Source: Candidatus Ratteibacteria bacterium (GTDB lineage: Bacteria > Ratteibacteria > UBA8468 > MWAK01). Taken from it: DNA of 64,000 nucleotides. Location of the stretch: NCBI GenBank assembly GCA_041653615.1, contig JBAZEZ010000005.1, positions 23,289 through 87,288 on the forward strand. Reading direction: 5' to 3'. The position numbers and the translations under genes were made by a program. Under the pieces are notes generated by a model. That model was not told the origin of the DNA. It made no database searches and saw nothing but the letters and a program-made list of their open reading frames with translations. Within the stretch, counting starts at the first letter, position 1; the number at the start of each line of letters is the position of its first letter. Shown in pieces: positions 7,024 through 56,428 of this stretch.

Positions 7024-7169
7024 TGTTCACTTTTGTTAAGGCATTTTTTGTTCAAGTATTGGTACAAATTTGTGCAGTATGTACAAATTGGAACGCATGT
7101 TTGATTTTTCTTTGATAACATTTTGACAAAAACAGCGTATTTATGTTCTAATATTGGAAACGTTGCAAT

Positions 7170-7257
7170 ACGGGGAGGTCGTAAAAGCGGCCTGAGAGTT
7201 TCGAGAAACCATCGGATAACCCGCGGAACCTGATCTGGATAATGCCAGCGTAGGGAA
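7170..7257 (+). ncRNA. TPP (THI-box) riboswitch aptamer
   Basis: ACGGGGAGG...GCCTGAGAG...AACCTGATCTGGATAATGCCAGCGTAGGGAA matches the THI-box consensus (CTGAGA; ACCTGATCTGGATAATGCCAGCGTAGGGAA). Confidence 0.85.
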
Positions 7258-7275
7258 AAAAGTTCAGATGTTAAT

Positions 7276-17595: not shown

Positions 17596-17638
17596 AGTGT
17601 GCGTTTTGGACGCAGGTCCCGTTTTAACTGTAGTTGCC

Positions 17639-17695
17639 GAGCTTGCTCGGCGTTTTAAAAGAGCCAACCAAGGTTGGCGCCTACAAATTTTTGTG
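17639..17695. repeat. REP-like hairpin pair (ACCGAGCttgGCTCGG; GCCAACCaaGGTTGGC) downstream of cysK
   Basis: The tgtagttgccgagcttgctcggc part matches 1081-1104. The palindromes are visible directly. Confidence 0.5.
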
Positions 17696-18628
<933 letters not shown>

Positions 18629-18641
18629 GTGACCCCCTTTG

Positions 18642-18743
18642 TTGGACGCAGATTACCGCAGATACAGATTAAAGATTGTTTTAGCGAATTACCAAAAAAT
18701 GCTCTTTTGCATTATCCTGCTGTTTCTGCGTATATCTGCGTCC
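18642..18743. mobile_element. MITE-like element, family A, copy 1 (TIR TTGGACGCAGAT ... ATCTGCGTCC)
   Basis: Terminal inverted repeats are perfect, with shared internal blocks (cgcagata, cagattaaaga, ctgcgtatatctgcgtcc). The other copies are at 21999-22122, 29832-29963 and 45482-45598. Confidence 0.7.
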
Positions 18744-21700
18744 TATTTAATAGATTTTTTCTTCCAGAGAAAATAGATGGCGGGATAGACGATTAATTCC
18801 ATGCCGAAGGAAGTGAATATGCCGCCGACCATCGGCGCGGCGATTCGCTTCAGTACGTCGGCGCCGATTTCATGCGTCTGTGCCCACATGATAGGGAGCA
18901 GTCCGATGAAAAGGACCGAGGCGGTCATTACCTTGGGCCGGACCCGTTTTACCGCGCCGTGGATGATGGCCTCCTTCAGGTCGTTGATTGTTTTCAGGAG
19001 GCCGTTCTTCTTCCGTTCTTCGTAGGAAAGATCCAGGTAGAGCAGCATGAAGATTCCGGTCTCCGCGTCCACGCCCAGCAGGGCGATGATTCCGACCAGG
19101 ACGCCGATGCTCAAGTTGTAATGGAGCAGGTAGAGTATCCAGACGACACCGATGAGGGAAAAGGGAACCGCCAGCAGGACGATGAAGGTCTTGGGAAAAC
19201 TCCGGGTATTGAAATAGAGGAGGAGGAAGATGATGAGGAGCGTCAGAGGCACGACCACCTTCATCCGTTCCTTCACCCGCTGCATCGACTCGTATTGGCC
19301 GCTGAAAACCAGGTTATAGCCGGCCGGGAGTTTCAGGTTATCGTTTAATTCTTTTTTGGCGTCGGCGACGTAACTGCCGATGTCCCGGTTGGCCACATCG
19401 ATGTAGACGTATCCGGCCAGCGACCCGTTTTCATCCCGAATCATGGACGGACCCGAACTTAATTCTACGTCGGCAATCTGTCCGACGGGGATTTGGCTTC
19501 CGGACGGCGTGGGGATGTAGGTCTTTTTTATCTTTTCGACGTCGTCCCTCAATTCCCGCGGGTAGCGGACGTTTATCGGCAGCCGCACCCGGCCTTCTAC
19601 GGTCTGGCTGATGTTTTCGCCGCCGATGGCGGACATCAGCGTTGTCTGAACGTCTTCTACGGTTAGTCCGTAGCGGGCAATCTCTTCTCTTTTGAGCGTA
19701 AAGTCCACAAAATAACCGCCGCCGGTCCTTTCCGCGTAGATGCTGCGGGTTCCCGGCACTCCTTTGAGCAGGGCTTCAATTTGCAGGCCGATTTCTTCGA
19801 CTCTTTTTAAATCATCTCCTTGGATTTTTATCCCGACCGGGGTGCGGATTCCGGTAGTCAGCATATCAATCCGGGCCTTGATGGGCATCGTCCAGGCGTT
19901 GACCTGGCCGGGGATTTGTAATTTCTGGTCCATTTCCTGAATCATTTCGTCCCAGGAAATTTTGTCCGGCCAGAGCAGCCGCAGGGAAGGCTGAAGAAAT
20001 TCCGGGACGCGGTTGGAATACCACCTGGGTTTGGAGCGCCACTGGTTCTGGGGTTTAAGTAAAACGGTTGTTTCCATCATGGAGTAGGGCGCCGGGTCGG
20101 TAGAGGTGGCGGCCCGGCCTGCTTTGCCGAAGACGCTGGTAACTTCCGGAAACGACTTAAGAATCTTATCCTGAACACCCAGCAGTTTGGTTGCCTCTGT
20201 CACCGAAATGCCGGGCGGAGTGGTTGGCATATATAAGATGCTGCCCTCATTGAGCGGAGGCATAAATTCCGTGCCCAGTTTGAAGAAGAACGGCATGGAA
20301 ACCAGAAAGAGAAGCACGGTCGAGAAGATGACAAGGCGCGGTTTACGCAGGACAAAATGGACAACTGGTTCGTACCATTTGAACAGGGCCCGGCTGACCG
20401 GGTGTTTTTCTTCGGAGTGAATCCGGCCCACCAGGAGGTGGTTGACTATCCCGCAGAGCCATTTCGGTTTGAATTCGTAAAAGTCGAGTTTGGTAAAGAG
20501 GAGCCGGATGGCCGGGTCAAGCGTAATGGCCAGAACCGCCGCAAAGAAGAGCGCGAAATTTTTGGTGAAGGCCAGTGGTTTGAAAAGACGACCTTCAATT
20601 CCTTCCAGGGTGAAGATAGGCATAAAGGCGACCGCGATGACCAGCAGGGAGAAGAAAGAAGCCTGGCCCACTTCTTTAATGGCGCTGATTAAGACTTCCC
20701 GGTAATCTCCCTGTCTGCCTCCCTCTTCCCAGTGAGAAAGTTTTTTGTGGGAGTTTTCCACCACCACAATGGCCGCGTCCACCATGGCGCCGATGGCGAT
20801 GGCGATGCCGCCCAGGCTCATTATGTTGGCGGTCAGTTTCATGTAGTACATCGGGATGAAAGCGATTAAGACCGCGATGGGCAGCGTGATGATGGGGATG
20901 ATTGCGGAAGGGAAATGGAGCAGGAAGAGGAGGATGATTAAACTTACCACAATCATTTCCTCGCGGAGTTTGCTTTTCAGAGTGTTGATGGCGCGATGGA
21001 TTATCTCGGAGCGGTCGTAGGTGATTACCAGTTTTACGCCTTCGGGGAGTTGGATTGTCTTCAATTGTTCTTTGACCCGGTTGATGACCTCCAGGGCGTT
21101 TTCCTGATACCTGATTATGACAATGCCGCCGACTACTTCGCCCCGGCCGTTCAATTCCGCCACGCCCCGTCTGATGTCCGGCCCGAATTGGACTGTGGCG
21201 ACGTTACTGATTCGTACCGGTACGCCGTTTTGGTCGGTTTTAAGGACGATATCCTCTATGTCTTTCAGCGATTTGAGGTAGCCCCTGATGGTTACCATGT
21301 ATTCCCGGCCGGAGATTTCCAGGAGCCGGGCGCCGGCTTCCTGGTTGGATTTTTGCAGGGCCATAACCACGTCATTGAGCGGGAGGTTGTAAGCGAGCAG
21401 GGCGTTGGGGTCAATGGTCACCTGATACTGTTTGGTGAAGCCGCCGACCGAGGCAACTTCCGAAACTCCCTTGACCGATTGCAGGGCGTACTTCAGGCGC
21501 CAGTTCTGGAAGGTGGTCAAATCTTCCAGGGAATTTTTGCCGGTATCGTCGACCAGAGCGTATTCAAAGACCCACCCCAGCCCGGTGGCGTCAGGACCGA
21601 TTTCCGTCTGAACCCCGGGCGGCAGTTGGGATGTTACCTTGGAGAGGTATTCTGTTACCCTGGAGCGGGCCCAGTAGATGTCGGTTCCGTCTTCAAAAAC

Positions 21701-21998: not shown

Positions 21999-22122
21999 TT
22001 TGGACGCAGATTACGGCAGATAATTGCGGATACATATTAAAGATTAATTCAGAGAATTGCTAAGAAATACTCTAAAATTATCCCTTAGTATTATCCTGTA
22101 TTTTCTGCGTATATCTGCGTCC
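21999..22122. mobile_element. MITE-like element, family A, copy 2
   Basis: tttggacgcagattacggcagata...ttctgcgtatatctgcgtcc. It lies between the adaptor and RND genes. Confidence 0.7.
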
Positions 22123-22128
22123 AGTTTC

Positions 22129-23157: not shown

Positions 23158-23165
23158 ACGGTTTC

Positions 23166-23255
23166 TATGTAGGGGAGGGGCTACGTCCCCTCCCGCCTAC
23201 GCTAAAGCTACGGCGGGCACAGCCCGCGGGCGGGGATTCAACCCCGCCCCTACAG
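23166..23255. repeat. GC-rich REP-like composite hairpin element
   Basis: tgtaGGGGAGGGGCtacgtCCCCTCCC ... GGGCGGGGattcaaCCCCGCCCctacag. It is related to 994-1105 and 41085-41140. Confidence 0.6.
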
Positions 23256-23257
23256 TT

Positions 23258-24580
23258 TTAAAACAACATTTCTTTTTCCGGTGAGACACCGGCGATAGAG
23301 AGGGATATTTCGTTTAAGGTTATTTCTCTTAATCCTTGCGCCGAAAGGTAATTAACGGAAAAGTCAAGAAAAGTCCGTTCCGCGTTCAATAAGTCGGCCA
23401 GATTGGTCTTTCCCGTTTGATACCCGGATTGAGCTATTTGGGTGGCCGCTCGGCTTTTTGGCAGGAGGTTTTCCCGGTAGAGTTTCACTTCCCGGTCTGC
23501 CTGTCTCCAGCGGAAGAGCCCGTCGGCCAGCCCTGCGGCTAAATCCAGTTCCTCGGCCGAAAAGGCCGCTTCCGTCATCTTTACGGTGCTCTTGGAAGCG
23601 GCAATCTGGCTGGCGGCTTTTCCCGGCCAGGGAATTGATATTGACAGCAAGGGCCTGGTGAGAGCCATTCCGGAAAAGAGGCCCTGCATCAAACCGATAT
23701 TAAAATCAGGCCATTGCTCCTTGTATGCCAACTTAACATAAACTTCACTCTGTTCTATCTCGTTTCGCAGGAGAGCCAGGCGGGGGTTTTTGGCCTGGAC
23801 GGATTCCCAGATATTTTTTTCCGAAAAACCTGCTTCGGTGAAGGGCAGGGCGGCTGGCGGTTTTGGAATCCGGTCAGATTGGAGTATGCCTAAAGCGGCG
23901 CCGAATTGGGCAATCAACACTTTTTCGGAATCTTTAAAGTTCGCCAGCATATTGGCCAGCTTCTCTTTTTCAATCTGGATTGTAATCGGGTCAAGCAGGG
24001 ATGACTCGTTGGTCTTTACCCTGGCTAAACTCACGTTTTCCTGTGCTTGAAGAAGTTTTAATATATCTTCCGTGAGTGTAATCTTTTCTTCCAGGACCCA
24101 GAACTGATAGGAAATTTCTTTTACCCGGAAAGCGGTTTGAAAGACCGCTGCTTCAAAAAGATGACTATTTTTGCCGGCTTCCAGGGAAGCCGCTTCGCCG
24201 GAAAGGGAAAGCTTGCCGGGCGCCGGTATCGTAAACATGATGCCGGGCATCAAAGAATCTATGACGCTGTTAAAATCCAAAAGTGAAAGCTGGGGATTGG
24301 CCGGGTACTTGGAGGCGTTAATCGCCTCCACCGCGTTTTTCCACTGGTAGAAAGCCTCTTCCACTCTGGGGTTGTTGAGGACCGCGTACTTAACAAAATC
24401 TTTGAGTTCCGAATCGGCGGTCAAGACCGGCAATTGGGGTCTGGCGTCTTTCGGCCGGTACTGTTTTTCAACCCGGGCAATCTTTTCTCTTTCGGCTTTC
24501 TCAACTTTGGTGGCCGGACCGGCGCAACCGGAGATTACTAAAAGAAGCGAGACGCAAATTAGTAAAAGTCTGGTCTTCAT
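23258..24580 (-). CDS. TolC-family outer-membrane efflux lipoprotein (CusC-like)
   Basis: The lipobox LLVISGCAG and two repeat halves with coiled coils are characteristic of OEP family proteins. Confidence 0.8.
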   Translation of the reverse strand: MKTRLLLICVSLLLVISGCAGPATKVEKAEREKIARVEKQYRPKDARPQLPVLTADSELKDFVKYAVLNNPRVEEAFYQWKNAVEAINASKYPANPQLSLLDFNSVIDSLMPGIMFTIPAPGKLSLSGEAASLEAGKNSHLFEAAVFQTAFRVKEISYQFWVLEEKITLTEDILKLLQAQENVSLARVKTNESSLLDPITIQIEKEKLANMLANFKDSEKVLIAQFGAALGILQSDRIPKPPAALPFTEAGFSEKNIWESVQAKNPRLALLRNEIEQSEVYVKLAYKEQWPDFNIGLMQGLFSGMALTRPLLSISIPWPGKAASQIAASKSTVKMTEAAFSAEELDLAAGLADGLFRWRQADREVKLYRENLLPKSRAATQIAQSGYQTGKTNLADLLNAERTFLDFSVNYLSAQGLREITLNEISLSIAGVSPEKEMLF

Positions 24581-24581
24581 C

Positions 24582-25070
24582 CTATTCCACGATTAATTTG
24601 CCGGTCATTCCGGAATGACCGAAGCCGCAAAAGACGGAGCAACGGAAGACAAAAGTTCCTTTTTTGTCGGCCAGAAACTCTATCTTTTTTGTTTCACCTT
24701 TATTGACCGGAACGTTTATGCCGTATTCCTTGATCGTCAGGCCGTGAGCAACGTCTTCCGAGGTGAAGTTTATCCTCACGATGTCGTTCTGTTTTACCCT
24801 TATTTCCGCCGGAACAAACGCGTATTTTTTGGCGACTACGTTAAATTCTTTTATCCGGCTGAGATATTTTTCCGGGTTCTTCTTAAAGTCGCTGATGCAC
24901 GCCGCGCAGCAGAAATAGTAGGTTTTCCCCTTATATTGATAGGAGACAGACGGGGATGCCTTTCCGCCCAGTACCGGGCAGATACCCGGATTTTCCACGG
25001 CTGAAGCAAGCGGAAGCAGAAGACCGAAAACCAACATTAGCAACAAACTACCCTTCAGAATTCTCTTCAT
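24582..25070 (-). CDS. secreted YHS/TRASH-domain + cupredoxin-like protein with CuA-type motif (paralog 1)
   Basis: A signal peptide is followed by YYFCCAACISDFKKNPEKY (YHS/TRASH) and a C-terminal FRCSVFCGFGHSGMTG (C-x3-C-x3-H-x2-M, the CuA pattern). The start is set at MKRILKG, preceded by GAGGGAG. Confidence 0.6.
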   Translation of the reverse strand: MKRILKGSLLLMLVFGLLLPLASAVENPGICPVLGGKASPSVSYQYKGKTYYFCCAACISDFKKNPEKYLSRIKEFNVVAKKYAFVPAEIRVKQNDIVRINFTSEDVAHGLTIKEYGINVPVNKGETKKIEFLADKKGTFVFRCSVFCGFGHSGMTGKLIVE

Positions 25071-25085
25071 CTTATTCTCCCTCGG

Positions 25086-25150
25086 CCGCCATAGCATGGA
25101 TGCCGGTGCGGCAAAGCCGCTTTGTTTAAGGCGTCCGTAGTGTGAAGGTG
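25086..25150 (-). promoter_or_regulatory. conserved structured 5'-leader motif (copy B) upstream of the cupredoxin paralog-1 SD
   Basis: The mRNA sense reads ACCUUCACACUACGGACGCC-uuaaacaAAGCGGCUUUGCCGCac-cGGCAUCCAUGCUAUGGCGGCCGAGGGAG-AUG. Confidence 0.5.
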
Positions 25151-25183: not shown

Positions 25184-25636
25184 CTATTCCACGATTAATT
25201 TGCCCTGCATTTTAAAATGGCCCATACCGCAGAAGACCGAACAGCGGAAGACAAAGGTTCCCGTCTTGTCAGCCAGAAACTCCACCTGTTTTGTCTCTCC
25301 CTTTTTGGCCGATATGTTTATGTTATATTCTTTAATCATGAAGCCGTGGGTAGCGTCTTTGGGAGCAAGGATTATCCTTACGGTGTCACCCTGCTTAACC
25401 CTTATTTCCGCCGGGTTGAACTCATATTTCTTGGCAATTACTGTGAACTCCTTTATCTGGCTTGGGGCTTTTACCGTTGAGCTATTACCTGTTTGTGCGC
25501 TAATATCGCCAGGGCCTTTTATGCTCTTAACGGCCGCCGATGCAAAAGAAACCGAAAGACCAAGAAACAATACCACCAGCCACCAACTTTTCCTCAAAGT
25601 AACCATACGTCCTCCTTTTGTGATAACTTTTTTCAT
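25184..25636 (-). CDS. secreted cupredoxin-like protein with CuA-type motif (paralog 2, no YHS domain)
   Basis: The C-terminal FRCSVFCGMGHFKMQGKLIVE is nearly identical to paralog 1, and the 3' flank is duplicated. Confidence 0.55.
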   Translation of the reverse strand: MKKVITKGGRMVTLRKSWWLVVLFLGLSVSFASAAVKSIKGPGDISAQTGNSSTVKAPSQIKEFTVIAKKYEFNPAEIRVKQGDTVRIILAPKDATHGFMIKEYNINISAKKGETKQVEFLADKTGTFVFRCSVFCGMGHFKMQGKLIVE

Positions 25637-28260: not shown

Positions 28261-28749
28261 TCATTCGACGATTAACCGGCCGGTCATTTCGGATTTTTTC
28301 CCGACATAAACAAGCGGGGAGCGAAATATGAATGTTCCTTTTTTGTCGGCCAGAAATTCTATCTTTTTTTCTTCATTCTGTATGACCGAAACGTTTATGC
28401 CGTACTCTTTTATTATCAGGCTGCGATTAACGTTTTTAGCGATGAAGGTTATCTGTACGATGTCACCCTGCTTCATCTTTATTTCTAACGGAAGAAACGA
28501 ATAAGTTTGGGCAAGTAACGTGATTTTTTTTATCCGGCTGAGGTATTTTTCCGGGTCTTTTTGGAAATTGATGACGCACTCCGGGTTGCAAAAGTAATAT
28601 GTTTCCCCGCCGTATTTACAAGAATTGGACAGGGATGCTTTTTTGCCCAGGACCGGGCAAAGACCCGGATTATCGGCTGCTAAGGCGGCAGACGCCAGAA
28701 GACCAAAAACCAAAACCAACAAAAGGCCACGCTTCCGGATTTTATTCAT
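28261..28749 (-). CDS. YHS-domain + cupredoxin-like paralog 3 with degenerate metal site
   Basis: It has the same architecture (signal peptide, YYFCNPECVINFQKDPEKY) but the C-terminus reads FRSPLVYVGKKSEMTG, so both Cys and the His are lost. Confidence 0.5.
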   Translation of the reverse strand: MNKIRKRGLLLVLVFGLLASAALAADNPGLCPVLGKKASLSNSCKYGGETYYFCNPECVINFQKDPEKYLSRIKKITLLAQTYSFLPLEIKMKQGDIVQITFIAKNVNRSLIIKEYGINVSVIQNEEKKIEFLADKKGTFIFRSPLVYVGKKSEMTGRLIVE

Positions 28750-29807: not shown

Positions 29808-29831
29808 AATTTAATTGTATAGGGATTTCTT

Positions 29832-29963
29832 TTGGACGCAGATAAGCGCAGAAATAACAAGATAATGATTAAGAGATAATTTAAGAGTAATTCTTTAGAG
29901 CACTTCTTTAAAGTAATCTTTAATAATCTGTATCTGCGTTTATCTGTGGTAATCTGCGTCCAA
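29832..29963. mobile_element. MITE-like element, family A, copy 3
   Basis: ttggacgcagataagcgcagaaata...ctgtatctgcgtttatctgtggtaatctgcgtccaa. Confidence 0.7.
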
Positions 29964-29972
29964 TGAAGTTAA

Positions 29973-31298
29973 TTATTTCTGACTTTTGCCCAGGGCCTGG
30001 TCAAGGTCCGCGATGATGTCTTCGGTGTTCTCCAATCCCACCGAGAGCCGGACGTAATCTTCGGTAACGCCGGTGCTGACCTGTTCCGCCGGGGTCAGCT
30101 GTTGGTGCGTGGTGCTGGCCGGATGGATAATCAGGGTTTTGGCGTCGCCGATATTGGCCAGGTGCGATATCAGTTTTACCGATTCAATCAATTTACGACC
30201 TGCTTCCTTGCCGCCTTTAATCCCGAACCCGAGGATACCGCCGAAGCCTTCTTTCAGGAAGGTCTTTGCCCTTTCGTGGTCCGGATGCCCGGGAAGTCCG
30301 GGATAATTTACCCAGGAGACGGCCGGATGTTTTTCCAGCCAGGCCGCGCAGGTTAGGGCGTTGATGGAATGCTGGCGCACCCGCAAGGGCAGGGTTTCAA
30401 TTCCCTGGATAATCTGGAAGGAGTTGAAAGGCGAGATACAGGGGCCGAGGTCCCGGAGGAGATTGACCCGCGCTTTAAGAATGTAAGTCAGGCCCGGCGC
30501 CACCGCTTTATCGTGATTGCCGAAGGCCTGCCAGAAAGAGAGGCCGTGGTAAGACGGGTCCGGCTCGGTCAGTTCTGGAAACTTTCCGTTGGCCCAGTTA
30601 AAGGCGCCGCCGTCCACAATGGCGCCGCCGATGCTGGTTCCGTGTCCGCCCAGGAATTTGGTCAGCGAATAAACGATGATGTCCGCGCCCAGGTCAAAAG
30701 GTTTCAGGAGCGGCGGCGGTGAAACGGTGTTGTCGATTATCAGCGGGATGCCCTGTTTGTGGGCGACGGCCGCGATTGCTGGGTAATCGTCAACGTTATT
30801 TTTAGGGTTGCCGATGGATTCCAGGTAAAGGAGCCGGGTATTTTTGTCGATGGCGGCGGCAAAGTTTTTCGGGTCGGCGGAGTCCACGAACCTTACTTCA
30901 ATTCCAAATCGGGCCAGGGTGTAGTGAAAAAGAGTGTAGGTCCCGCCGTAGAGATAACTGGTGGAGACGATATTCTGGCCGGATTTGGTGATGTTAAGTA
31001 TCGCCAGGGTAATTGCCGCCTGGCCGGAAGCAACCGCCAGGCTGCCGGTACCGTTGTCCAGGGCGGCAAGCCGCTTTTCCAGGACGTCGGTGGTCGGGTT
31101 CTGTATTCGGGTATAAATATTACCGAATTCTTTCAGGGCGAAGAGGTCGGCCGCGTGCGCGGTATTTTTAAAGACATAACTGGTTGTCTGGTATATCGGC
31201 ACCGCCCGCGAACCGGTGGTCGGGTCCGGTTCCTGGCCGGCGTGTAAGGCCAGCGTTTCCACTTTCTGTTTTGTTTTACCCCTTCCGTTTTTTTCCAT
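29973..31298 (-). CDS. metY: O-acetylhomoserine/O-acetylserine sulfhydrylase (PLP-dependent, MetY family), paralog 1
   Basis: [28 protein letters not shown] is a canonical Cys/Met-metabolism PLP-enzyme N-terminus. The PLP Lys region [10 protein letters not shown] is present. Confidence 0.85.
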
Positions 31299-31401: not shown

Positions 31402-32337
31402 CTAATCCGCAAATTCCTGGAAGAGCCAGGTGGAAAGGTATCTTTCGCCGGTGTCAGGAAGTACCGCAACAATCGTCTTCCCTTTAGATTCCTTTCTTTT
31501 GGCGATTTCAAGGGCGGCCCACAACGCCGCTCCGCTGGATATGCCGACGAAGATACCTTCTTCGCGTGCCAGCTTCCTGGCTACTATTCCCGCGTTCTCG
31601 TTGCTTACCTGGATAATCTCATCGATGATTGACCGGTTCAGGACGCCTGGTATGAAACCGGCGCCTATCCCTTGGATTTTGTGCGGGCCGGGTTCGCCGC
31701 CGGAGAGCACCGGCGAATCGACCGGCTCAACGGCGACAATCTTTACCGACGGCCTTCTCTTTTTCAATACCTCTCCCACGCCGGTGACCGTCCCGCCGGT
31801 ACCTACGCCGGAGACAAACACGTCTATGTTTCCATCCGTGTCATTCCAGATTTCTTCGGCGGTCGTCTTCCGGTGGATTTCCGGGTTTGCCGGGTTTTCG
31901 AACTGCTGCAGGACGAAACTGTTGGGTGTCGCGGCCTTAAGTTCTTCGGCCTTCTGAACCGCGCCTTTCATGCCTTTCGCGCCTTCGGTCAGCACCAGTT
32001 CCGCACCGAGAATCTTCAGCAGCTGCCTGCGCTCGATGCTCATGGTGTCCGGCATCGTAAGTATCAGACGGTATCCTTTGGCGGCGGCGACGAAGGCAAG
32101 AGATATGCCGGTGTTGCCGCTGGTCGGTTCGATGATGACTGTGTCCTTTTTAAGCAAGCCCTGTTTTTCGGCTGTTTCAATCAGCGCCACGCCGATTCTG
32201 TCTTTTACGCTGGAGAGCGGGTTGAAAGATTCCAGTTTTACCAGTACCGTGGCGTGTAAACCATTCGTCAACCGGTTGATTTTTACCAGCGGTGTTCTTC
32301 CCACCGTTTTGGTTATGTCCGCGTATATTTTGCTCAT
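31402..32337 (-). CDS. cysK: cysteine synthase, paralog 2
   Basis: [23 protein letters not shown]... is a paralog of 17696-18628. The start is set at the ATG preceded by AAAGGAG; the longer ORF-track N-terminus is rejected. Confidence 0.85.
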
Positions 32338-32350
32338 GTTTTCTCCTTTG

Positions 32351-32424
32351 CCGCGCCGTAGCATGGACGCCTCGGGGCGGCGAAGCCGCCGGGAAACGAG
32401 GCGTCCGCATTGCGAAGGCGGGCT
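32351..32424 (-). promoter_or_regulatory. conserved structured 5'-leader motif (copy C) upstream of the cysK2 SD, flanked by 16-nt direct repeats
   Basis: The mRNA sense reads CCCGCCUUCGCAAUGCGGACGCCUCG-uuucccg-GCGGCUUCGCCGCC-CCGAGGCGUCCAUGCUACGG. The flanks CUAUGGCGCGGCAAAG / CUACGGCGCGGCAAAG are direct repeats. Confidence 0.55.
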
Positions 32425-32467
32425 TTGCCGCGCCATAGTTATTATACATAGGCGGGCTTTTTTGTTT

Positions 32468-34689
<2,222 letters not shown>

Positions 34690-37996: not shown

Positions 37997-38045
37997 AATA
38001 AAAAACCCCTTAGGCAGGCGGTATCGCATGCAATAAGGGGTGTCC
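37997..38045 (-). terminator. intrinsic terminator of the second TPP riboswitch
   Basis: The mRNA sense reads GGACACCCCUUAUUGCAUGCGAUACCGCCUGCCUAAGGGGUUUUUUAUU. Confidence 0.6.
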
Positions 38046-38057
38046 AGGTTCATGCTT

Positions 38058-38146
38058 CTTCCCTCCGCTGGTATTACCCAGATCAGGTTCTGCGGGTTAT
38101 CTGTTTACTTCTCAGAACTCTCAGGCCGCTCTTACGACCTCCCCGT
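38058..38146 (-). ncRNA. TPP (THI-box) riboswitch aptamer, second copy
   Basis: The reverse complement reads ACGGGGAGGUCGUAAGAGCGGCCUGAGAG...AACCUGAUCUGGGUAAUACCAGCGGAGGGAAG, roughly 85% identical to 7170-7257. Confidence 0.85.
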
Positions 38147-38203
38147 TTAATTATTGATAATATTAAAGCATACCTGCGCTGTTACTGTCAAAATTTTGCA
38201 GCG

Positions 38204-41084: not shown

Positions 41085-41140
41085 TGTAGGGGCGGGGTTA
41101 CATCCCCGCCCGCGGGAGGGGCACAGCCCCTCCCCTACAT
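41085..41140. repeat. GC-rich REP-like composite hairpin element
   Basis: tgtaGGGGCGGGGttacatCCCCGCCCgcGGGAGGGGCacaGCCCCTCCCctaca. The first hairpin is identical to the one at 997-1019. Confidence 0.6.
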
Positions 41141-41156
41141 TGCAAGGGAGTCAATT

Positions 41157-42374: not shown

Positions 42375-45300
42375 ATGACAGGCAGAAAAACAATGAGTAT
42401 ATCTGAAATATTTATCCGTCGTCCGGTGGCAACGGTTTTAATCAGCATTGCCATTTTGCTGGCCGGTGTTGTTGGGTTTAAACTCCTTCCGCAGAGTACC
42501 ATGCCCAATATCGACCTTCCCACCATCCAGGTTACCGCTGCTTTGCCGGGCGCCAGCCCGGAAACGATGGCTTCTTCGGTCGCCACTCCGCTGGAAAAAG
42601 AATTTTCCGCCATTTCCGGATTGGACTCCATGAATTCCACCAGTTCTACCGGGATGACCCAGATAACCCTGCAGTTTAATCTCAGCCGTAAAATCGACGC
42701 GGCCGCCCAGGATGTTCAGGCAGCCATATCCATAGCTTCCTATCAACTACCCAGCGATATGCCTGCTCCGCCTTCATACCAGAAGATTAATCCGGCGATT
42801 CAGCCGATTCTGTTTCTGAACGTTACTTCGGAAACGATGCCTCTTTCCAGGGTAAATTATTACGCATCAAAATATATTTCCCAACGTCTTTCCATGGTAG
42901 ACGGTGTCGCGCAGGTTCAGGTCTACGGGGCGCAGAAATACGCGGTCCGGATTCAACTCGACCCGGAGAAACTGGCCGCGCACTCGGTTGGAATGGACGA
43001 GGTCGTAGCCGCTATTAAAGCAGGGAACGTAAATTTGCCCACCGGAGTTTTGAACGGCAGCGCCAGGACTTTTACCGTTGAATCGAACGGACAACTGGAA
43101 AACGCCGACGCCTACCGTAATTTGATTATTGCTTATCGCAACGAATCTCCGCTGCGCCTGGGAGAGGTTGCGCAGGTGATTGACAGCGTGGAGGAGATTA
43201 GGACGGCCGCCTGGTTAAACAATGACCAGCGTGCCCTTGTGCTGGCTATCCAGCGCCAGCCCGGCACCAATACGGTGGCCGTGGTGGACCGGGTCAGAAA
43301 ATTGCTGCCGGAGCTCCAGGCACAACTGCCGGCCTCAATAAAATTAGAAATTTTCTTTGATATGTCCCAATCCATCCGGGAGTCGGTACGCGAGGTTAAA
43401 TTCACCCTGCTTATCACGATGCTCCTGGTGATAATGGTGATATTCCTCTTTTTGCGGAATGTGCCGGCGACCGTCATTCCGGGCGCGGCGCTGGCTATGT
43501 CCATCATCGGCACTTTTGCCGTAATGTATTTTTCCGGTTTCAGCCTGAATATTCTTTCCCTGATGGCCCTGTCTCTCTGTACCGGTTTTGTGGTTGACGA
43601 CGCCATCGTCATGCTGGAAAATATCGTCCGGCACGTGGAGCATAAGGAAGAGCCCTATCAGGCCGCTCTGAACGGGTCGAAGGAGATCGGTTTTACGATT
43701 ATCGCCATGACGCTTTCGCTGGTGGTGGTTTTTGTTCCGGTCCTTTTTATGGGAGGGGTATTAGGGCGCATCTTTAAGGAATTCGCGGTTACCATCAGCG
43801 CGGCAATCCTTATTTCCGGGTTTATCTCCCTGTTTCTTACGCCCATGCTGTGCAGCCGTTTCCTGAGAGTCCACCCGGTCGGTGAGAAGCATAACCGGTT
43901 TTATAATTACTTGGAAAACGGTCTGGCTTGGCTGCGGCTTGGATACGAAAAGAGCCTGCGGAAGGTTATGGAGTACCGGTTGGTCACCATCGTGATTGGT
44001 TTTGTGGTTTTAATTGCCACCGGTTTTCTTTTCGCAAGAATACCCAAAGGTTTTATTCCGAACGAAGACTGGAACGTTCTTCTTACCCAGACCGAAGCTG
44101 TCCAGGGGATATCTTTTGATTCCATGGCTGCTCATCAGCGGGCGGTGGCCGAGGTCATCGGACGTAATTCCAACGTTGAAATGATAATGCACGTGGTCGG
44201 TTTTATGGGTACCGCCAACACCGGCTTTATGTTCGTGCGCTTGAAGCCCAGGGTTGAGCGTACCCTGGACGCGGACGGAGTGATTGAATCGTTGAGAGGG
44301 GAAATCTCCGGAATTCCGGGTATTAAGGTCTTTATGCAGAACCCGCCGGCAATTCCCATCGGCGCCCACGAGATGAAGAGCCCGTATCAATTTACACTGC
44401 AGAGCCCGAATACCGCTGAACTCTACCGTTATACCGAAATACTGGAAGAAAAGATGAAAGGCATAGAAGGGATTCAGGATGTTTCCAGCGACCTTCAGAT
44501 GCAGAACCCGCAGGTTAAAGTGGAGATAGACCGGGATAAGGCTTCGGCGTTGGGTATCTCTTCCTACCAGATTGAAGACCTGCTTTTCAGCGCTTACGGT
44601 TCCCGGAAAGTTTCCACCATCTTTATGCCGGAGGACCAGTATAACGTAATACTGGAATTACAGGACCAGTATCAGCGGGACCCATCGGCGCTGTCAAAAC
44701 TTTACCTGCATTCTAATACCGGCGCTTTAATTCCGTTGAGCGCGGTGGTAAAGACGGGGCAGAGCGTAGGACCGGTATCGATTAACCACCAGGGTCAGCT
44801 TCCGTCGGCAACAATAGCATTTGGTCTGAAACCCGGAATATCTTTGGGAGGTGCCAGCGCCGCGGTAAAGAAAATGGCAATCGAGACCCTGCCGACCAGC
44901 ATCAACGGAAATTTTCAGGGAACAGCCCAGGTTTTTCAGTCTTCCGCCAAGGGTTTTCTCTGGCTTTTCCTGGGGGCAATTTTAATCATTTATATAGTCC
45001 TGGGAATTCTTTACGAAGATTTTATTCATCCGATTACGATTTTAAGCGGGCTTCCGTCCGCCGCGTTCGGCGCGTTGCTGGCTCTTTTAATCTTTAGGAT
45101 GGAACTGAATATTTACGCGATAGTGGGAATTTTGATGCTGATTGGAATCGTGAAGAAGAATGCTATTATGATGATTGATTTTGCGGTTCAGGGGATGAGA
45201 AACGAGGGAAAGAGCGGGAAAGAGGCGATTCTTGACGGCTGTCTGATTCGTTTCCGGCCCATTATTATGACTTCAACCGCTGCTTTCATCGGCTCTTTGC

Positions 45301-45476
45301 CGATAGCGATTGGGCTTGGCGCTCACGCGGCCGGCCGGCGTCCTCTGGGATTGGCGGTGGCCGGCGGCCTTTTGTTTTCGCAGATACTGACCCTTTATTT
45401 GACCCCGGTCTTCTTTACCTATATGGAGGATTTCAAAAAGTGGCTGAAGCGGTTTTCCCGGCATAAAAATTTATAA
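42375..45476 (+). CDS. multidrug efflux RND transporter permease (AcrB/HAE1 family)
   Basis: The 1033-aa protein begins MSISEIFIRRPVATVLISIAILLAG, a typical HAE1 start, and has 12 TM helices. Confidence 0.9.
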   Translation: MTGRKTMSISEIFIRRPVATVLISIAILLAGVVGFKLLPQSTMPNIDLPTIQVTAALPGASPETMASSVATPLEKEFSAISGLDSMNSTSSTGMTQITLQFNLSRKIDAAAQDVQAAISIASYQLPSDMPAPPSYQKINPAIQPILFLNVTSETMPLSRVNYYASKYISQRLSMVDGVAQVQVYGAQKYAVRIQLDPEKLAAHSVGMDEVVAAIKAGNVNLPTGVLNGSARTFTVESNGQLENADAYRNLIIAYRNESPLRLGEVAQVIDSVEEIRTAAWLNNDQRALVLAIQRQPGTNTVAVVDRVRKLLPELQAQLPASIKLEIFFDMSQSIRESVREVKFTLLITMLLVIMVIFLFLRNVPATVIPGAALAMSIIGTFAVMYFSGFSLNILSLMALSLCTGFVVDDAIVMLENIVRHVEHKEEPYQAALNGSKEIGFTIIAMTLSLVVVFVPVLFMGGVLGRIFKEFAVTISAAILISGFISLFLTPMLCSRFLRVHPVGEKHNRFYNYLENGLAWLRLGYEKSLRKVMEYRLVTIVIGFVVLIATGFLFARIPKGFIPNEDWNVLLTQTEAVQGISFDSMAAHQRAVAEVIGRNSNVEMIMHVVGFMGTANTGFMFVRLKPRVERTLDADGVIESLRGEISGIPGIKVFMQNPPAIPIGAHEMKSPYQFTLQSPNTAELYRYTEILEEKMKGIEGIQDVSSDLQMQNPQVKVEIDRDKASALGISSYQIEDLLFSAYGSRKVSTIFMPEDQYNVILELQDQYQRDPSALSKLYLHSNTGALIPLSAVVKTGQSVGPVSINHQGQLPSATIAFGLKPGISLGGASAAVKKMAIETLPTSINGNFQGTAQVFQSSAKGFLWLFLGAILIIYIVLGILYEDFIHPITILSGLPSAAFGALLALLIFRMELNIYAIVGILMLIGIVKKNAIMMIDFAVQGMRNEGKSGKEAILDGCLIRFRPIIMTSTAAFIGSLPIAIGLGAHAAGRRPLGLAVAGGLLFSQILTLYLTPVFFTYMEDFKKWLKRFSRHKNL

Positions 45477-45481
45477 ATTAT

Positions 45482-45598
45482 TTGGACGCAGATTTTCGCA
45501 GATAACCGCAGATACAGATTAAAGAATTGCTTTAAATAAGTACCTTAAAATTATCGTCTGATCCTTATCCCGTAGTTTCTGAGCTTATCTGCGTCCAA
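45482..45598. mobile_element. MITE-like element, family A, copy 4
   Basis: ttggacgcagattttcgcagataaccgcagatacagattaaagaattg...gagcttatctgcgtccaa. It starts 6 nt after the RND stop codon. Confidence 0.7.
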
Positions 45599-45638
45599 AG
45601 GAAATTCTTAGGTAATTAAATTATTTCAGGAGGTTGTT

Positions 45639-46916
45639 GTGGTGAAAATAAAATATATTTTTCTGATTGTTTGTATTCTTTTCGCCGGTTGTTTTTCGGT
45701 TCGGGCGGAAGAGGCCATCGCGAAAAATTCAACCCTTACCCTTGACCAATGTATTCGGGTCGGACTGCAAAACCACCCGGATATCGCGGCCTATGCCGGC
45801 AATGTCAATGTCTACCAGGCCCGGGTCGGTCAGGCCAGGTCTGCTTATTATCCTCATTTTAGTTTAACATCCGGATATTCCCGCGATAAAATGACTCCGC
45901 CCCCGACTATGCCTGAGATGTTGAGTTATTCCGTTGGTCTTTACCTCAACCAGAACATTTATGATTTTGGCCAGACCGGCAGCAAGGTAAAAATTCAGAA
46001 TCTAAATCTGGGAGCCGCCGCTTTGGACCTGGACGCGGTTTCAAACCAGGTTGCCCTGAATATAAAACAATCCTATTACGCGGTATTGAAGGCGGAGAAG
46101 AATAAGGAGGTGGCTGAAGAATCTGTCCGGGTGTTTGGAAAACATCTTGACCAGGCGAAGGCGTTCTTTTCCGTGGGGCAGAAACCCCGTTTTGACGTTA
46201 CCCGGGCCGAGGTGGATTTAAGCGGCGCAAAATTAGGGCTCATTAAGGCCGAAAACGCTTTGAAGGTTGCCCGGGTGACGCTGAATAATGCCATGGGCGT
46301 TCCGTCTGCCCCGGAGTATTCAATTGAGGATAATCTTTCGTTCCAGAAATATCAGGTGACCATGGAAGAGGCGCTGGCCAGGGCGTACTCAAACCGGCCG
46401 GACCTGAAAGGGGTCGTTGTCCGGAAAGAGGCGGCGCTGGAATCGGTCAGGTTGGCCCGTAAGCAGTATTTGCCCGTTATTTCCGGAACCGCGAGTTACT
46501 CGCAGGGGAATGACGAGTTTCCGCTTAAAGAAGGATGGGGTGTCGGCGTTAATCTGGCGGTACCGATTTTTAATGGGTTTGAAACCAAAAACCGGGTGGC
46601 GGAGGCTAGAGCGGCCGAGACGGTTCTGCGGGCAAACGAAGAATCGCTCCGGCAGTCCATCATACTTGAAGTACAGCAGGCGTATCTGGGTTTACGGGAA
46701 GTGGAAGACAGTGTTTCTACTTCAGAGCTTCTCGTAAGGCAGGCGCGGGAAAGTTCCGAGATTGCCCAAGGCCGGTATGATGCCGGCGTGGGAAGCCCGC
46801 TTGAAGTTACCGACGCGCAGATTACTTACGTGGAAGCCCGGCAGAATTATATTGAGACGCTTTATCAATATCAGGTTGCCCGGGAATCGCTTCAGAAAGC
46901 CATGGGACTTCAATAG
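45639..46916 (+). CDS. TolC-family outer-membrane efflux protein
   Basis: It has a signal peptide and two OEP repeats (…LTLDQCIRVGLQNHPDI…; …EEALARAYSNRPDL…). Confidence 0.8.
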   Translation: MVKIKYIFLIVCILFAGCFSVRAEEAIAKNSTLTLDQCIRVGLQNHPDIAAYAGNVNVYQARVGQARSAYYPHFSLTSGYSRDKMTPPPTMPEMLSYSVGLYLNQNIYDFGQTGSKVKIQNLNLGAAALDLDAVSNQVALNIKQSYYAVLKAEKNKEVAEESVRVFGKHLDQAKAFFSVGQKPRFDVTRAEVDLSGAKLGLIKAENALKVARVTLNNAMGVPSAPEYSIEDNLSFQKYQVTMEEALARAYSNRPDLKGVVVRKEAALESVRLARKQYLPVISGTASYSQGNDEFPLKEGWGVGVNLAVPIFNGFETKNRVAEARAAETVLRANEESLRQSIILEVQQAYLGLREVEDSVSTSELLVRQARESSEIAQGRYDAGVGSPLEVTDAQITYVEARQNYIETLYQYQVARESLQKAMGLQ

Positions 46917-48518: not shown

Positions 48519-48637
48519 CCGATTCGTCTTCATTCATATAGCGGCGTTGGCCGCGCGTCAGCTTCCTCGGCGTACTTCCGTGTACGCCTTCGTTGTTTAC
48601 TTCTCGCCGCCTTGCTCTATTTCTGAATACGAATCGG
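48519..48637. mobile_element. MITE-like element, family B, copy 1 (TIR CCGATTCGTCTTCATTCAT ... TTCTGAATACGAATCGG)
   Basis: It begins 2 nt after the gspE-like stop. A near-identical copy lies at 52660-52780. Confidence 0.65.
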
Positions 48638-48647
48638 TGTACAATTT

Positions 48648-52659: not shown

Positions 52660-52780
52660 CCCAATTCGCCTTCATTCATATAGCGGCGTTGGCTTCGTCA
52701 GCAGCTTCCTCGGCGTACTTCCGTGTAAGCCTGCGTCGCTGCTTCCTTGCCGCCTTGTTCTATTTTTGAAGGCGAATTGG
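52660..52780. mobile_element. MITE-like element, family B, copy 2
   Basis: cccaattcgccttcattcatatagcggcgttggc...tatttttgaaggcgaattgg. It begins 1 nt after the macA-like stop. Confidence 0.65.
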
Positions 52781-52800
52781 TATAAATTTCGGTATAAATT

Positions 52801-54820: not shown

Positions 54821-56428
54821 ATGAAAAAGAACTGTTGGTGGAGATGTTGCTTGATAGCCGGGTTTTTATTTTACCTGGCTGGGTGTTCGGCGCAGCATTA
54901 TCGGGAAAGCGCGGACCGCGAGGTTTACCGCATCCTGGCGGAGAAGAAGGGGCCGGGTCCGGTGGTTTCTTTTGATATTGAACCAAAAAGTCCGCCGGTT
55001 TTTTTGCCGGGCGAGATAAAAGAGGTCGGCCTGCGGGAAGTGCTTCAGCTGGCAGCCCTGCACAGTCGGGAATATCAGGATAGGAAGGAGAGTCTTTATC
55101 TGCAAGCGCTTAGTCTCACGGCCCAGCGCCACAACTATCGGCCCAGGTTTGGCGCTGGTATCAACGTCGACTGGACAACCGCCGGTAAGGACAGTGTGAG
55201 TGTTGCCGGCGATTTTTCGCTTGTCCAGTGGTTGGCCGACGGCTCCCAGGTTACCCTGAATCTGGGTACGGATTTTTTACGGTATCTGACCGGCGACCCG
55301 CAAGAGTCGCTCGGTTCGCTCTTGAGCCTTAATCTCCTGCAGCCTATTTTTCGGGGCGCCGGTCGACGGGTTGCCCGGGAAAATCTCACCCAGTCCGAAC
55401 GGGATGTTGTTTACGCCATCCGCTCTTTTTTGCATTATCAGCGCACCTTTTCGGTTGCAATTACCACCAATTACTATCAACTCCTGGAGCAGAAGATGGT
55501 GTTGTCTAACGAAGAGAATAATTATCAGCAATTGGTGGCAAATCGCCAGCGCAGCGAGATGCTGGGTGAAGCCGGTCGTTTACCCCTTTTCCAGGTGGAT
55601 CAAGCCCGCCAGGATGAGTTGAAAGCTTACGAACGGATGATTTCGGCCCGCACAATTTACCAGGAAGAGGTTGACCAGTTTAAGGTTTTGTTAGGATTGC
55701 CGGCTAACGCCGCCATTCGTTTCAGCGACAAGGAGGCCGAGGAGTTGACTACCCGGGCACTGCCGGTTCTCCAGCTGGACCTGGCGCAGGCGCTCAAGAT
55801 ATCTTTGCAAAACCGGCTGGATCTGATGAGCGCCCTGGACGCGGTTGAGGACGCCGGTCGCAAAGTGACGGTTTCCCGGGATAATCTTCGGTCCGACCTT
55901 TCGTTTGTTGGCGCTGCCAGCGGTTCGACACCGGAGGATGAAAACACGGTTCTAAAATTTGAATCGAATAAAGTTGATTACAGCGCCGGTTTGCATCTGA
56001 ATTTACCCGTTGACCGGTTGACGGAAAGGAATAGTTATCGCCAGAGTTTAATTTCTCTGGAACACAGCCGCCGCAACCTGTCTTTGGTGCAGGACAGCGT
56101 TTCTTTGGGAATGCGCACCGCCTGGCGCAACCTGGAACAAGCCCGGCAGAGTTACGAAAATCAAAAGATCAGTTTAGCGTTGGCGCAACGGAGGGTGGAG
56201 AGCACTAACATGCTGCTGGATGCGGGCCGGGCATCCCAGCGGGACCTTTTAGAGGCACAGAGCGCCAGTCTGCAGGCACGCAACAGCCTTCTGGCGGCAA
56301 CGGTTGATTATCTTTCCGCCGACCTGGCTTTTTTGCGGGACGCAGAGATGCTGGAGATTGGCAGCAATGGTGTTTGGACGGGAGATTGGAATGCGCAAAC
56401 TAATACGGATACAGAGATTAAAAACTAA
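54821..56428 (+). CDS. TolC-like outer-membrane efflux lipoprotein
   Basis: The lipobox FLFYLAGCS is followed by OEP-like repeats. Confidence 0.65.
   Translation: MKKNCWWRCCLIAGFLFYLAGCSAQHYRESADREVYRILAEKKGPGPVVSFDIEPKSPPVFLPGEIKEVGLREVLQLAALHSREYQDRKESLYLQALSLTAQRHNYRPRFGAGINVDWTTAGKDSVSVAGDFSLVQWLADGSQVTLNLGTDFLRYLTGDPQESLGSLLSLNLLQPIFRGAGRRVARENLTQSERDVVYAIRSFLHYQRTFSVAITTNYYQLLEQKMVLSNEENNYQQLVANRQRSEMLGEAGRLPLFQVDQARQDELKAYERMISARTIYQEEVDQFKVLLGLPANAAIRFSDKEAEELTTRALPVLQLDLAQALKISLQNRLDLMSALDAVEDAGRKVTVSRDNLRSDLSFVGAASGSTPEDENTVLKFESNKVDYSAGLHLNLPVDRLTERNSYRQSLISLEHSRRNLSLVQDSVSLGMRTAWRNLEQARQSYENQKISLALAQRRVESTNMLLDAGRASQRDLLEAQSASLQARNSLLAATVDYLSADLAFLRDAEMLEIGSNGVWTGDWNAQTNTDTEIKN

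Follow-up and report, generated by a model that had tools for sequence, protein, structure and literature searches.

The 64-kb stretch of a Candidatus Ratteibacteria genome analysed here (64,000 nt of contig JBAZEZ010000005.1; in the following, the window) carries four copies of a non-coding inverted repeat, family A, which we labelled c1 to c4 by coordinate order. In our judgement these copies are probably old, fixed, gene-less hairpin repeats that form the non-autonomous counterpart of a cassette carrying a nuclease gene of the GxxExxY family, because the same arms, down to the outermost bases, enclose a clade of 131-aa GxxExxY proteins that begin with 'MNAD...'. They look like gene-less members of a widespread, scarcely described selfish cassette, not like relics of an ordinary insertion sequence (IS). 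Window copies and GxxExxY cassettes share their ends, a hairpin module and a niche at junctions inside operons. The four copies are:

c1, 18642-18743, plus strand: 102 nt, without one 10-nt unit; antisense to the neighbouring minus-strand genes
c2, 22000-22123, plus strand: 124 nt; antisense to the genes, occupying the cusB-like/cusA-like junction
c3, 29832-29963, minus strand: 132 nt; inverted with respect to the other three copies, in sense orientation to its minus-strand neighbours
c4, 45482-45598, plus strand: 117 nt; sense, at the AcrB-like/OEP-TolC-like junction

These places agree with the original prediction for c1, c3 and c4, whereas the second copy had been placed one base off. Perfect terminal inverted repeats (TIRs) of 12 bp, as claimed there for all copies, are present in c3 and c4; in c1 (..GTCCTA) and c2 (..GTCCAG) only 11 of 12 positions agree, but a 10-bp core is perfect throughout. 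The corresponding 10-mer, GGACGCAGAT, occurs exactly eight times in the 64 kb, each time as an element end of c1 to c4, with about 0.1 exact matches expected from length alone. When up to one mismatch was allowed, 14 matches were obtained against a shuffle mean of 3.0, and 0 of 100 shuffles reached 14. A search of the window with the family profile returned only four strong matches, which are c1 to c4 (E 1e-26 to 1e-36). In c1, for example, the sequence order is TTGGACGCAGAT-TAC-CGCAGAT-ACAGATTAAAGA ... TTTCTGCG-TAT-ATCTGCGTCC. Pairwise identity among the copies is 67-80%, and their G+C content of 32-39% compares with about 50% for the window. Coding capacity had been denied to them, in agreement with a longest stop-free stretch of 43 codons in any copy. 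The hairpin potential noted from the letters was also borne out: all four copies fold, on either strand, as a long interrupted imperfect hairpin with a folding free energy (dG) of -32 to -46 kcal/mol and z-scores of -4.8 to -8.8 (c1: dG -37/-40, z -6.9/-8.1), and complementarity within each copy reaches beyond the TIR. Rfam 15 at gathering score had no family for the copies and reported in the window only two thiamine pyrophosphate (TPP) riboswitches and one tRNA; permissive Rfam scans of c3 and c4 gave sub-threshold generic hairpin matches only.

The element ends are inverted arrays of the heptamer CGCAGAT, one unit per helical turn of 10 nt, around a variable centre; the internal CGCAGAT direct repeats noted earlier are real and have this 10-nt spacing. 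Among 125 distinct elements, the second CGCAGAT core occupies positions 14-20, exactly 10 nt past the first, and the arms are multi-unit phased repeats extending over about 30-40 nt. The 3-nt spacer in between (positions 11-13) has an arm-to-arm complementarity of 0.30/0.30/0.42 in these 125 elements, against 0.32/0.36/0.42 expected, which is chance level. The conserved entity is therefore the phased word and not a continuous stem, and this would point to recognition by a protein on one face of the helix. In several elements from different samples (L249 at about 1915-1945; L009, L061), the right arm harbours a small hairpin of high G+C content, CCTGCCCGCCGTCTGGCAGGCGGG; this hairpin is a further mini-repeat targeting CGCAGAT arms.

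Such arms are not confined to the window, so that similarity beyond the four loci, on which the original prediction had been staked, does exist. We scanned one genome per species for GGACGCAGAT-N80-110-ATCTGCGTCC, a two-ended pattern for which about 17 chance matches are estimated at uniform base composition. At least 116 genome loci were found, most of them inverted CGCAGAT arrays around a variable centre, from Verrucomicrobiota, Planctomycetota, Chloroflexota, Nitrospirota, Omnitrophota, Desulfobacterota, ANME-1 archaea and others; the left-end pattern gave at least 120 metagenome loci. Counting related families with these ends, the loci number more than 200 and belong to ANME-1 archaea as well as to many phyla of Bacteria. 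Complete genomes with matches include AP024152.1, OZ245740.1 and OY969416.1. The subfamily to which the window copies belong is narrower and comprises 17 copies scoring more than 83 bits each, the next best match reaching 48 bits. In the JGI metagenome of the host strain, two contigs carry three copies each and two contigs one; the subfamily is also present on two contigs of an Omnitrophota metagenome-assembled genome (MAG) and on two contigs of another metagenome. A separate, near-identical family of 81-nt hairpins recurs at many loci on metagenome contigs (L163, L166, L181, L188, L194, L217, L227, L232 and L238); its borders are sharp, its 3' tail is conserved, and its direct repeats resemble ATCAAGTTA. 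Its many near-identical copies imply recent multiplication in some sediment organism.

Exact termini enclose a 131-aa GxxExxY open reading frame (ORF) in L011 and L107, and L122 has the ORF with a diverged left arm. The ORFs of L011 and L107 match TIGR04256 (E 1e-39) and PF13366 PDDEXK_3 (E 1e-40). The ATG of the gene lies inside the repeat, where TGG ACG CAG ATG AAC GCA GAT is read as WTQMNAD, and the opposite arm comes after the stop codon. In cassettes and window copies alike, the outermost bases of the arms are TTGGACGCAGAT ... TTTCTGCG-NNN(N)-ATCTGCGTCC. According to a working definition of this analysis, which is not a published one, a cassette has TTGGACGCAG(ATG)..CGCAGAT at one end and TTTCTGCG-N3-4-ATCTGCGTCC at the opposite end; the window copies have both, and they close like the 3' ends of cassettes (..GTTTCTGCGTATATCTGCGTCC). 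Moreover, the best match to the profile of the window subfamily is the short hairpin module just 3' of the L011 gene, and the two align over their full length.

The same ends appear when the protein is taken as the starting point. Three cassettes picked by protein alone all begin with TTGGACGC(A/G)G-ATG-AAC.. (3/3) and finish with the stop codon followed by TT(T)TCTGCG...ATCTGCGTCC, one of them with ATCCGCGTCC. In the homologue search, 7995 of 8000 scored candidates had E <= 1e-10; of the 120 top-ranking cluster representatives, 100 have a length of exactly 131 aa and 117 show either an M[NTDS][AT]D start or QMNAD, the translation of the arm. Conversely, 21 of 125 short hairpins retain N- or C-terminal GxxExxY codons, and ten of these 21 remnants keep the arm-independent C-terminal NFG..KAFDN*. 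In ANME-1-like MAGs, the short copies are in-frame internal deletions in which both the initial and the final codons of the gene survive (MNADNQDFK...LNFGTKPEVKRKAFDNLKK*). In about 240 fetched loci (about 1.4 Mb), GxxExxY was the only cargo ORF that we encountered between CGCAGAT arms.

Cassette layouts vary: we found arm-ORF-arm' (L122, L248-L250), arm-ORF-arm-loop-arm' (L011, L109) and hairpin-ORF-hairpin (L003). ORF-bearing cassettes share the junction niche of the window copies, with examples in the order permease, 16 nt, GxxExxY, 44 nt, ABC ATPase, and between fabD and fabG. They are co-oriented with the adjacent called gene or genes in six of six annotated loci (in L249 with the upstream gene only, the downstream one being opposite), which fits a dependence of the cassette on read-through transcription. 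In L248 (203-1415), the gene-bearing cassette directly follows a nucleotidyltransferase/HepT-like toxin-antitoxin pair and a HEPN gene, a neighbourhood rich in defence and addiction functions. We also sampled seven GxxExxY genes regardless of repeats, six from plasmid records of cultured bacteria and one from a viral contig; viral contigs as an unbiased source yielded this kind of gene at one locus only. Inverted repeats of 16-30 nt bracket four of the seven, with phased units clear in at least one, and a fifth has a 32-nt phased hairpin 3' of the gene. The repeat words differ from CGCAGAT, being ACAGAGGAC in Bacteroides finegoldii, CGCGAAGG in Sphingomonas (the fabD/fabG junction) and CGCGGAT in Gemmatirosa. 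The literature searched (GxxExxY, PDDEXK_3/PF13366, TIGR04256/TIGR02436 and MITEs in ANME-1; coverage incomplete) contained no description of a link between such repeats and the GxxExxY gene, although repeats may be mentioned in curators' notes on these protein families.

GxxExxY has been described as a family of unknown function with multiple transfers between Bacteria and Archaea (PMC3424549). When clustered at 50% identity, the family comprises 12,670 representatives at E <= 1e-3, of which 3,336 reach E <= 1e-10. Residues D73, E83 and K85 are near-invariant. An AlphaFold2 model based on 86 diverse sequences reached a predicted local distance difference test score (pLDDT) of 93.7, whereas a model from a shallow alignment was unusable (pLDDT 51). 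The best solved structural neighbours of the model are Cas4 SSO0001 (E 7e-4, TM-score 0.51) and lambda-type exonucleases; a sequence search of the PDB found no solved relative. PADLOC gave weak Cas4-like profile matches only, and PHROGs gave no match. On account of the near-invariant D73/E83/K85, the neighbours of the model and the weak Cas4 profile matches, GxxExxY is a minimal RecB/Cas4-like PD-(D/E)XK nuclease. The window copies resemble the family as catalogued (TIGR04256; PF13366) in bearing the termini that bracket its 'MNAD' clade; they differ in having no ORF, the family being defined by the protein. Some members (P0241-P0245, P0279, P0295 and others) measure 250-277 aa and contain two tandem GxxExxY domains, and these are either fused adjacent cassettes or read-through gene calls.

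All four window copies occupy very small gaps between co-directional genes, and the flanking gene coordinates agree with the gene-boundary contexts claimed earlier, including those at both resistance-nodulation-division (RND) pump genes. c1 lies between the stop of the CusA-like gene and the start of a CysK/PALP-like gene, which at 18628 is 13 nt from c1; c2 between the CusB-like stop (22129) and the CusA-like ATG (21991); c3 between the MetY-like stop (29973) and the PurM-like start (29807) on the minus strand; and c4 between the AcrB-like (42375-45476) and the outer-membrane efflux protein (OEP)/TolC-like (45639-46916) genes, which form an operon of the type membrane fusion protein (MFP)-AcrB-OEP. 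Terminal sequences of the copies can supply stop codons to host genes. For example, the CusA-like stop TAG (18743-18745, minus strand) arises from 'TA' joined to the leading G of the terminal GGACGCAGAT. A comparable case was seen in L011 (2740-2775 and 5505-5530), where the 18 nt to the left of the hairpin (AAAAATAAATGAAATTTT) are identical past the GxxExxY gene and past an unrelated host gene; the element appears to give this host gene its last codons (KNK) and its stop.

Elements of this kind can enter otherwise tight gene junctions. The cusB-cusA gap measures 137 nt in the window and in three further assemblies from this population; at the loci of the closest CusA homologues (77% identity), the two genes either overlap or have 9 nt between them. 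Judged by this difference in gap length, c2 looks inserted into an otherwise tight cusB/cusA junction. One CusA-like protein encoded in the window agrees at 100% identity with a partial protein labelled Candidatus Ratteibacteria at NCBI. The same DNA is available from four sources: ENA ERZ27247358, JGI 3300014205 (99.82% identical), a Logan assembly and NCBI GCA_041675445.1 (JBAYTW01). The 162-nt gap holding c4 is also present in NCBI GCA_041675445.1 and in the ENA assembly. A megablast of the c1-c2 region against plasmids gave gene-level similarity only. All 17 subfamily copies lie, with respect to callable neighbours, 5-36 nt past one ORF and 6-42 nt ahead of the next, and on L172 and L143 they fill successive gene junctions. 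Their orientation relative to the genes is sense in seven and antisense in six cases. Diverged interiors, eight intact termini and fixation in four assemblies suggest that c1 to c4 are old copies whose ends were once, or still are, constrained.

Several results weigh against counting the window copies as relatives of the GxxExxY cassette that moved into place. There is no GxxExxY ORF in the 64-kb window as judged by tblastn. Smith-Waterman comparison of the window loops with GxxExxY coding DNA gave z < 2.5 in 99 of 102 cases, with a maximum of 3.0; the notion that these loops descend from a GxxExxY ORF was dropped, as no similarity was significant. Descent by gene deletion is shown for the ANME-1 families only and not for the window copies. 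Arms of the CGCAGAT type go with GxxExxY proteins that are 37-40% identical, while other family members have unrelated arms; since diverged proteins share arms and others have unrelated ones, a simple co-evolution of one protein with one site is not evident. An empty site in a close relative was not found, the nearest CusA homologues being only 77% identical. Presence/absence polymorphism was not seen among the four same-population assemblies either, all of which have c2 and/or c4, and for this reason mobility is only inferred. The aligned flanks of the 17 subfamily copies contain no target-site duplication at the hairpin borders. Finally, RNAalifold on 15 copies found 0 compensatory pairs; the arm pairs are invariant, which makes covariation uninformative, and the changed pairs in its output (seven of G-U type, three of A-C type) are not significant.

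The rival explanation closest to the original prediction is that of a classical miniature inverted-repeat transposable element (MITE), i.e. an internally deleted IS moved by a DDE transposase of the IS630/Tc1, IS5 or a similar family that is encoded elsewhere, binds the 12-bp TIRs and makes staggered cuts. The description as MITE-like holds in so far as the copies are dispersed non-coding inverted repeats at gene boundaries. Like Correia elements, Nezha and RUP, they are small, AT-rich, multi-copy and intergenic and have inverted repeats at their termini; for some of the related short copies, derivation from a gene-bearing parent by internal deletion can be demonstrated. An origin from IS630/Tc1 or IS5-like elements was not supported, GxxExxY being the only cargo: the parent has no transposase of a known IS family, and no cognate transposase with matching ends is enclosed in the approximately 240 loci (1.4 Mb) fetched. 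Furthermore, the ends are multi-unit phased arms of about 30-40 nt, not a simple TIR. A MITE derived from a known IS family would be expected to have a target-site duplication of fixed length and varied sequence, and here much depends on whether a 3' tail is taken as part of the element. The tails of the two copies concerned are:

c3 3' tail, 29808-29831, minus strand: AAAAGAAATCCCTATACAATTAAATT, extending to the PurM-like ATG at 29807 and aligning with the c4 tail
c4 3' tail, 45599-45626, plus strand: AGGAAATTCTTAGGTAATTAAATTATTT

Once this tail is counted, c3 is flanked by an AT-rich direct repeat of 9/11 and c4 by one of 9/9; c1 and c2 have no flanking direct repeat. In the case of c4, the last 9 nt of the tail (AAATTATTT, 45618-45626) repeat the 9 nt to the left of the hairpin core (45475-45483), a 9/9 match of A and T only within AT-rich flanks that is weak evidence alone. 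The 81-nt family also has direct repeats, of 8-9 bp at its sharp borders, and in L194 a variant base is found on both sides. The conserved 3' tail AAAAGGAAATTCCTATAC.ATYAARTTA is common to c3, c4 and many related families, and an AT-rich word resembling this tail motif stands ahead of the hairpin. The direct repeat in related families is always a variant of ATYAARTTA, and in every copy of a second related family the left version differs from the right one in a consistent way. Because of this single motif and the consistent left/right difference, the supposed duplication behaves as if it belonged to the element or were a fixed target, rather than as a random duplication. It may be either a site-specific duplication or a fixed asymmetric end/target motif. 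A canonical target-site duplication, which the original prediction had proposed to look for, is accordingly not supported, and we regard the classical MITE as unlikely.

A second rival holds that the repeats spread as single-strand hairpins through an HUH tyrosine transposase, in the manner of repetitive extragenic palindromic (REP) sequences with their REP-associated tyrosine transposases (RAYTs) or of IS200/IS605, with GxxExxY as a frequent passenger or neighbour. The elements form hairpins, lack clear duplications and have an AT-rich left-flank motif resembling the right-end sequence. This motif recalls the recognition of target and cleavage sites by IS200/IS605. The operon-junction niche and the dimer-like symmetry are as in REPINs, the REP doublets (PMC3116915, PMC3733652), and since GTAG-tagged REP-like hairpins are also found in the window, such machinery may exist in the host. 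REPs, however, are defined as 20-40-nt GC-rich palindromes with an unpaired GTAG or CGTC tag (PMC3733652), whereas the present elements have no such unpaired tag and span 100-130 nt with interrupted stems. No RAYT/TnpA-like ORF is enclosed by the arms within 280-1300 nt in the fetched loci (the window and the host were not searched with a RAYT profile), and the GxxExxY linkage is systematic, with the start codon embedded in the arm. We therefore consider this route improbable.

In its logic, the REPIN-RAYT pair is nevertheless the closest analogue of what we see, although the form is MITE-like. Both systems (PMC3116915, PMC3733652) comprise short non-coding palindromes dispersed in extragenic gaps, often between co-directional genes, one small gene flanked by the same repeats and far outnumbered by non-coding copies, and transcription, presumed for our elements, into RNA hairpins with possible effects on mRNA. 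They differ in the linked gene, which encodes a PD-(D/E)XK nuclease (GxxExxY) here and an HUH tyrosine transposase there; in the size of 102-132 nt, the G+C content of 32-39%, the paired termini and the 10-nt-phased heptamers of our elements; and in a gene start codon that lies in the repeat, with an arm sequence common to phyla and to both prokaryotic domains. CGTC-tagged REPs (PMC3733652) are likewise palindromic, with CGTC/GACG near the ends and no dedicated transposase identified. Those REPs, which come mainly from Alphaproteobacteria, combine 8-9-bp stems and loops of 4-5 nt with an unpaired tag, whereas GGACGC/GCGTCC is paired here and part of the 10-nt unit; size and structure rule out this identity.

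Alternatively, the copies could be host regulatory RNAs (terminators, attenuators or stabilisers) kept by selection, their likeness reflecting function and not mobility. They form strong hairpins on both strands, are placed exactly at cistron boundaries and are fixed in four assemblies, and REPs and similar elements affect mRNA stability (PMC3733652 and general knowledge). A role as terminator or attenuator inside operons, as had been suggested, was not supported: the hairpin flanks on the transcribed strand are A-rich, not T-rich (GCGTCCAA(A)..); terminator scans of the window flagged none of c1 to c4, with no U-tract beside any copy; both orientations are about equally frequent; and termination at the cusB/cusA or acrB/tolC junction would split a pump operon. 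Beyond termination, the nearest homologous operons are without the elements, neither an Rfam family nor compensatory changes were found, and the same ends appear in unrelated contexts, in two domains and around a selfish-looking nuclease gene. A regulatory origin seems to us similarly improbable. The most economical reading of the window copies is that of tolerated passengers co-transcribed with their operons.

That the short hairpins are homing sites for GxxExxY as a free-standing homing-endonuclease gene and spread by another route is very improbable: several layouts do suggest a gene placed in or beside an existing hairpin, with arm duplication, and small PD-(D/E)XK homing endonucleases are generally known, but the in-frame deletion derivatives with both ORF ends mean that some short copies derive from gene-bearing ones, and the multiplication of the hairpins would be left unexplained.

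Returning to the gene-less counterpart of the GxxExxY cassette, we can outline how such copies might arise and behave. Because drift has reduced the interiors to 67-80% identity but left the termini invariant, and because the spacers of the two arms are not complementary, copying would take place at the DNA level by a protein reading the phased heptamers, with the linked GxxExxY nuclease acting in trans as the prime candidate. The window copies would no longer be mobile in the host genome. They would be co-transcribed with the host operons as a long interrupted RNA hairpin, without termination. Long hairpins, as in REPs and rRNA intervening sequences (IVS), are substrates of double-strand-specific RNases or barriers to 3' exonucleases, and by analogy either role is plausible for the window hairpins. 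Such an RNA hairpin may be cut by the RNase or may slow 3' exonucleases, thereby uncoupling neighbouring cistrons. The IVS of 23S rRNA in Coxiella and Leptospira (PMC4990558) offer a parallel, since a long inverted-repeat stem, which may enclose a small ORF of a many-paralogue family, is embedded in a host transcript; IVS themselves are excised by RNase III. The window copies, by contrast, lie between protein-coding genes, and the window contains no rRNA. Moreover, the IVS examples carry S23p, a four-helix-bundle protein, and not GxxExxY.

A more far-reaching proposal, which we put forward only tentatively, is that GxxExxY and the phased arms constitute a pan-prokaryotic, junction-dwelling selfish cassette, in which the nuclease reads phased 7-nt words and copies both itself and gene-less shells, while the arm stem releases the ORF as a leaderless mRNA; c1 to c4 would then be fossils. 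Release as a leaderless mRNA would explain why the ATG has a fixed place in the repeat and why no ribosome-binding site is seen. If the nuclease does copy both cassette and shells, the system would parallel the REPIN-RAYT partnership, with a nuclease as its driver. Taken alone, the window copies are ordinary fossils, and the family behind them is the point of interest. The most abundant GxxExxY clade is tied to a conserved phased repeat, with gene-less hairpins in junctions from ANME-1 archaea to Verrucomicrobiota. For GxxExxY/PDDEXK_3, annotated as 'function unknown', this offers the testable idea of a structure- or motif-specific nuclease propagating a cassette. In practical terms, many spurious N-terminal extensions in gene calls (..WTQMNAD..) are accounted for by the repeats, which are also likely to disrupt short-read assemblies, and hairpins of 100-130 nt inside efflux-pump and transporter operons may alter the ratio of the products.

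Two further places in the window show weaker resemblance to family A and are uncertain:

17606-17621, plus strand: TTGGACGCAGGTCC, a one-mismatch match to the terminal 10-mer, possibly the collapsed remnant or footprint of a fifth copy
56336-56428, plus strand: GGACGCAGAG ... TTGGACGGGAGATT ... CGGATACAGAGATTAAAAAC-TAA, a weak left-arm resemblance within the 3' end of the ORF 54821-56428

Collapsed hairpins resembling the former are present in the related loci L144, L153, L207 and L231. The latter is based on a one-mismatch match to the 10-mer at 56338 and an nhmmer E-value of 0.02.

The window contains a second repeat family of GC-rich, GTAG-headed hairpins (TGTAGGGGCGGGGTTACATCCCCGCCC...) at 990-1020, 23162-23258 and 41085-41145, partly arranged as inverted doublets ending in ..CTACA. 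This family looks like GTAG-tagged REPs/REPINs as defined in PMC3733652. A GTAG...CTAC doublet of two small hairpins (GCCGAGCTTGCTCGGC, GCCAACCAAGGTTGGC) lies at 17630-17686 between two minus-strand genes, and in the JGI host-strain metagenome (contig L172, 1818-1878) the loop of a family-A element contains a copy of this doublet with 95% identity. Members of the two families thus occur side by side and insert into each other.

The two TPP riboswitches above the Rfam gathering score (7161-7274, plus strand; 38043-38155, minus strand) are 86% complementary over 91 nt and thus form a recent paralogous pair ahead of different genes, with a Thi4-like gene downstream of the second. An 88-nt direct repeat of 81% identity (48559-48646 and 52702-52789) stands just upstream of genes starting at 48648 and 52801 and may be a shared leader or promoter region. 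Paralogous genes are also present: the copper cluster has three YHS/cupredoxin-like paralogues (24582-25097, 25184-25636 and 28261-28749), and there are pairs of CysK/PALP-like (17696-18628 and 31402-32436) and MetY-like genes (29973-31298 and 32468-33778). DNA identity among these paralogues is 62-76%.

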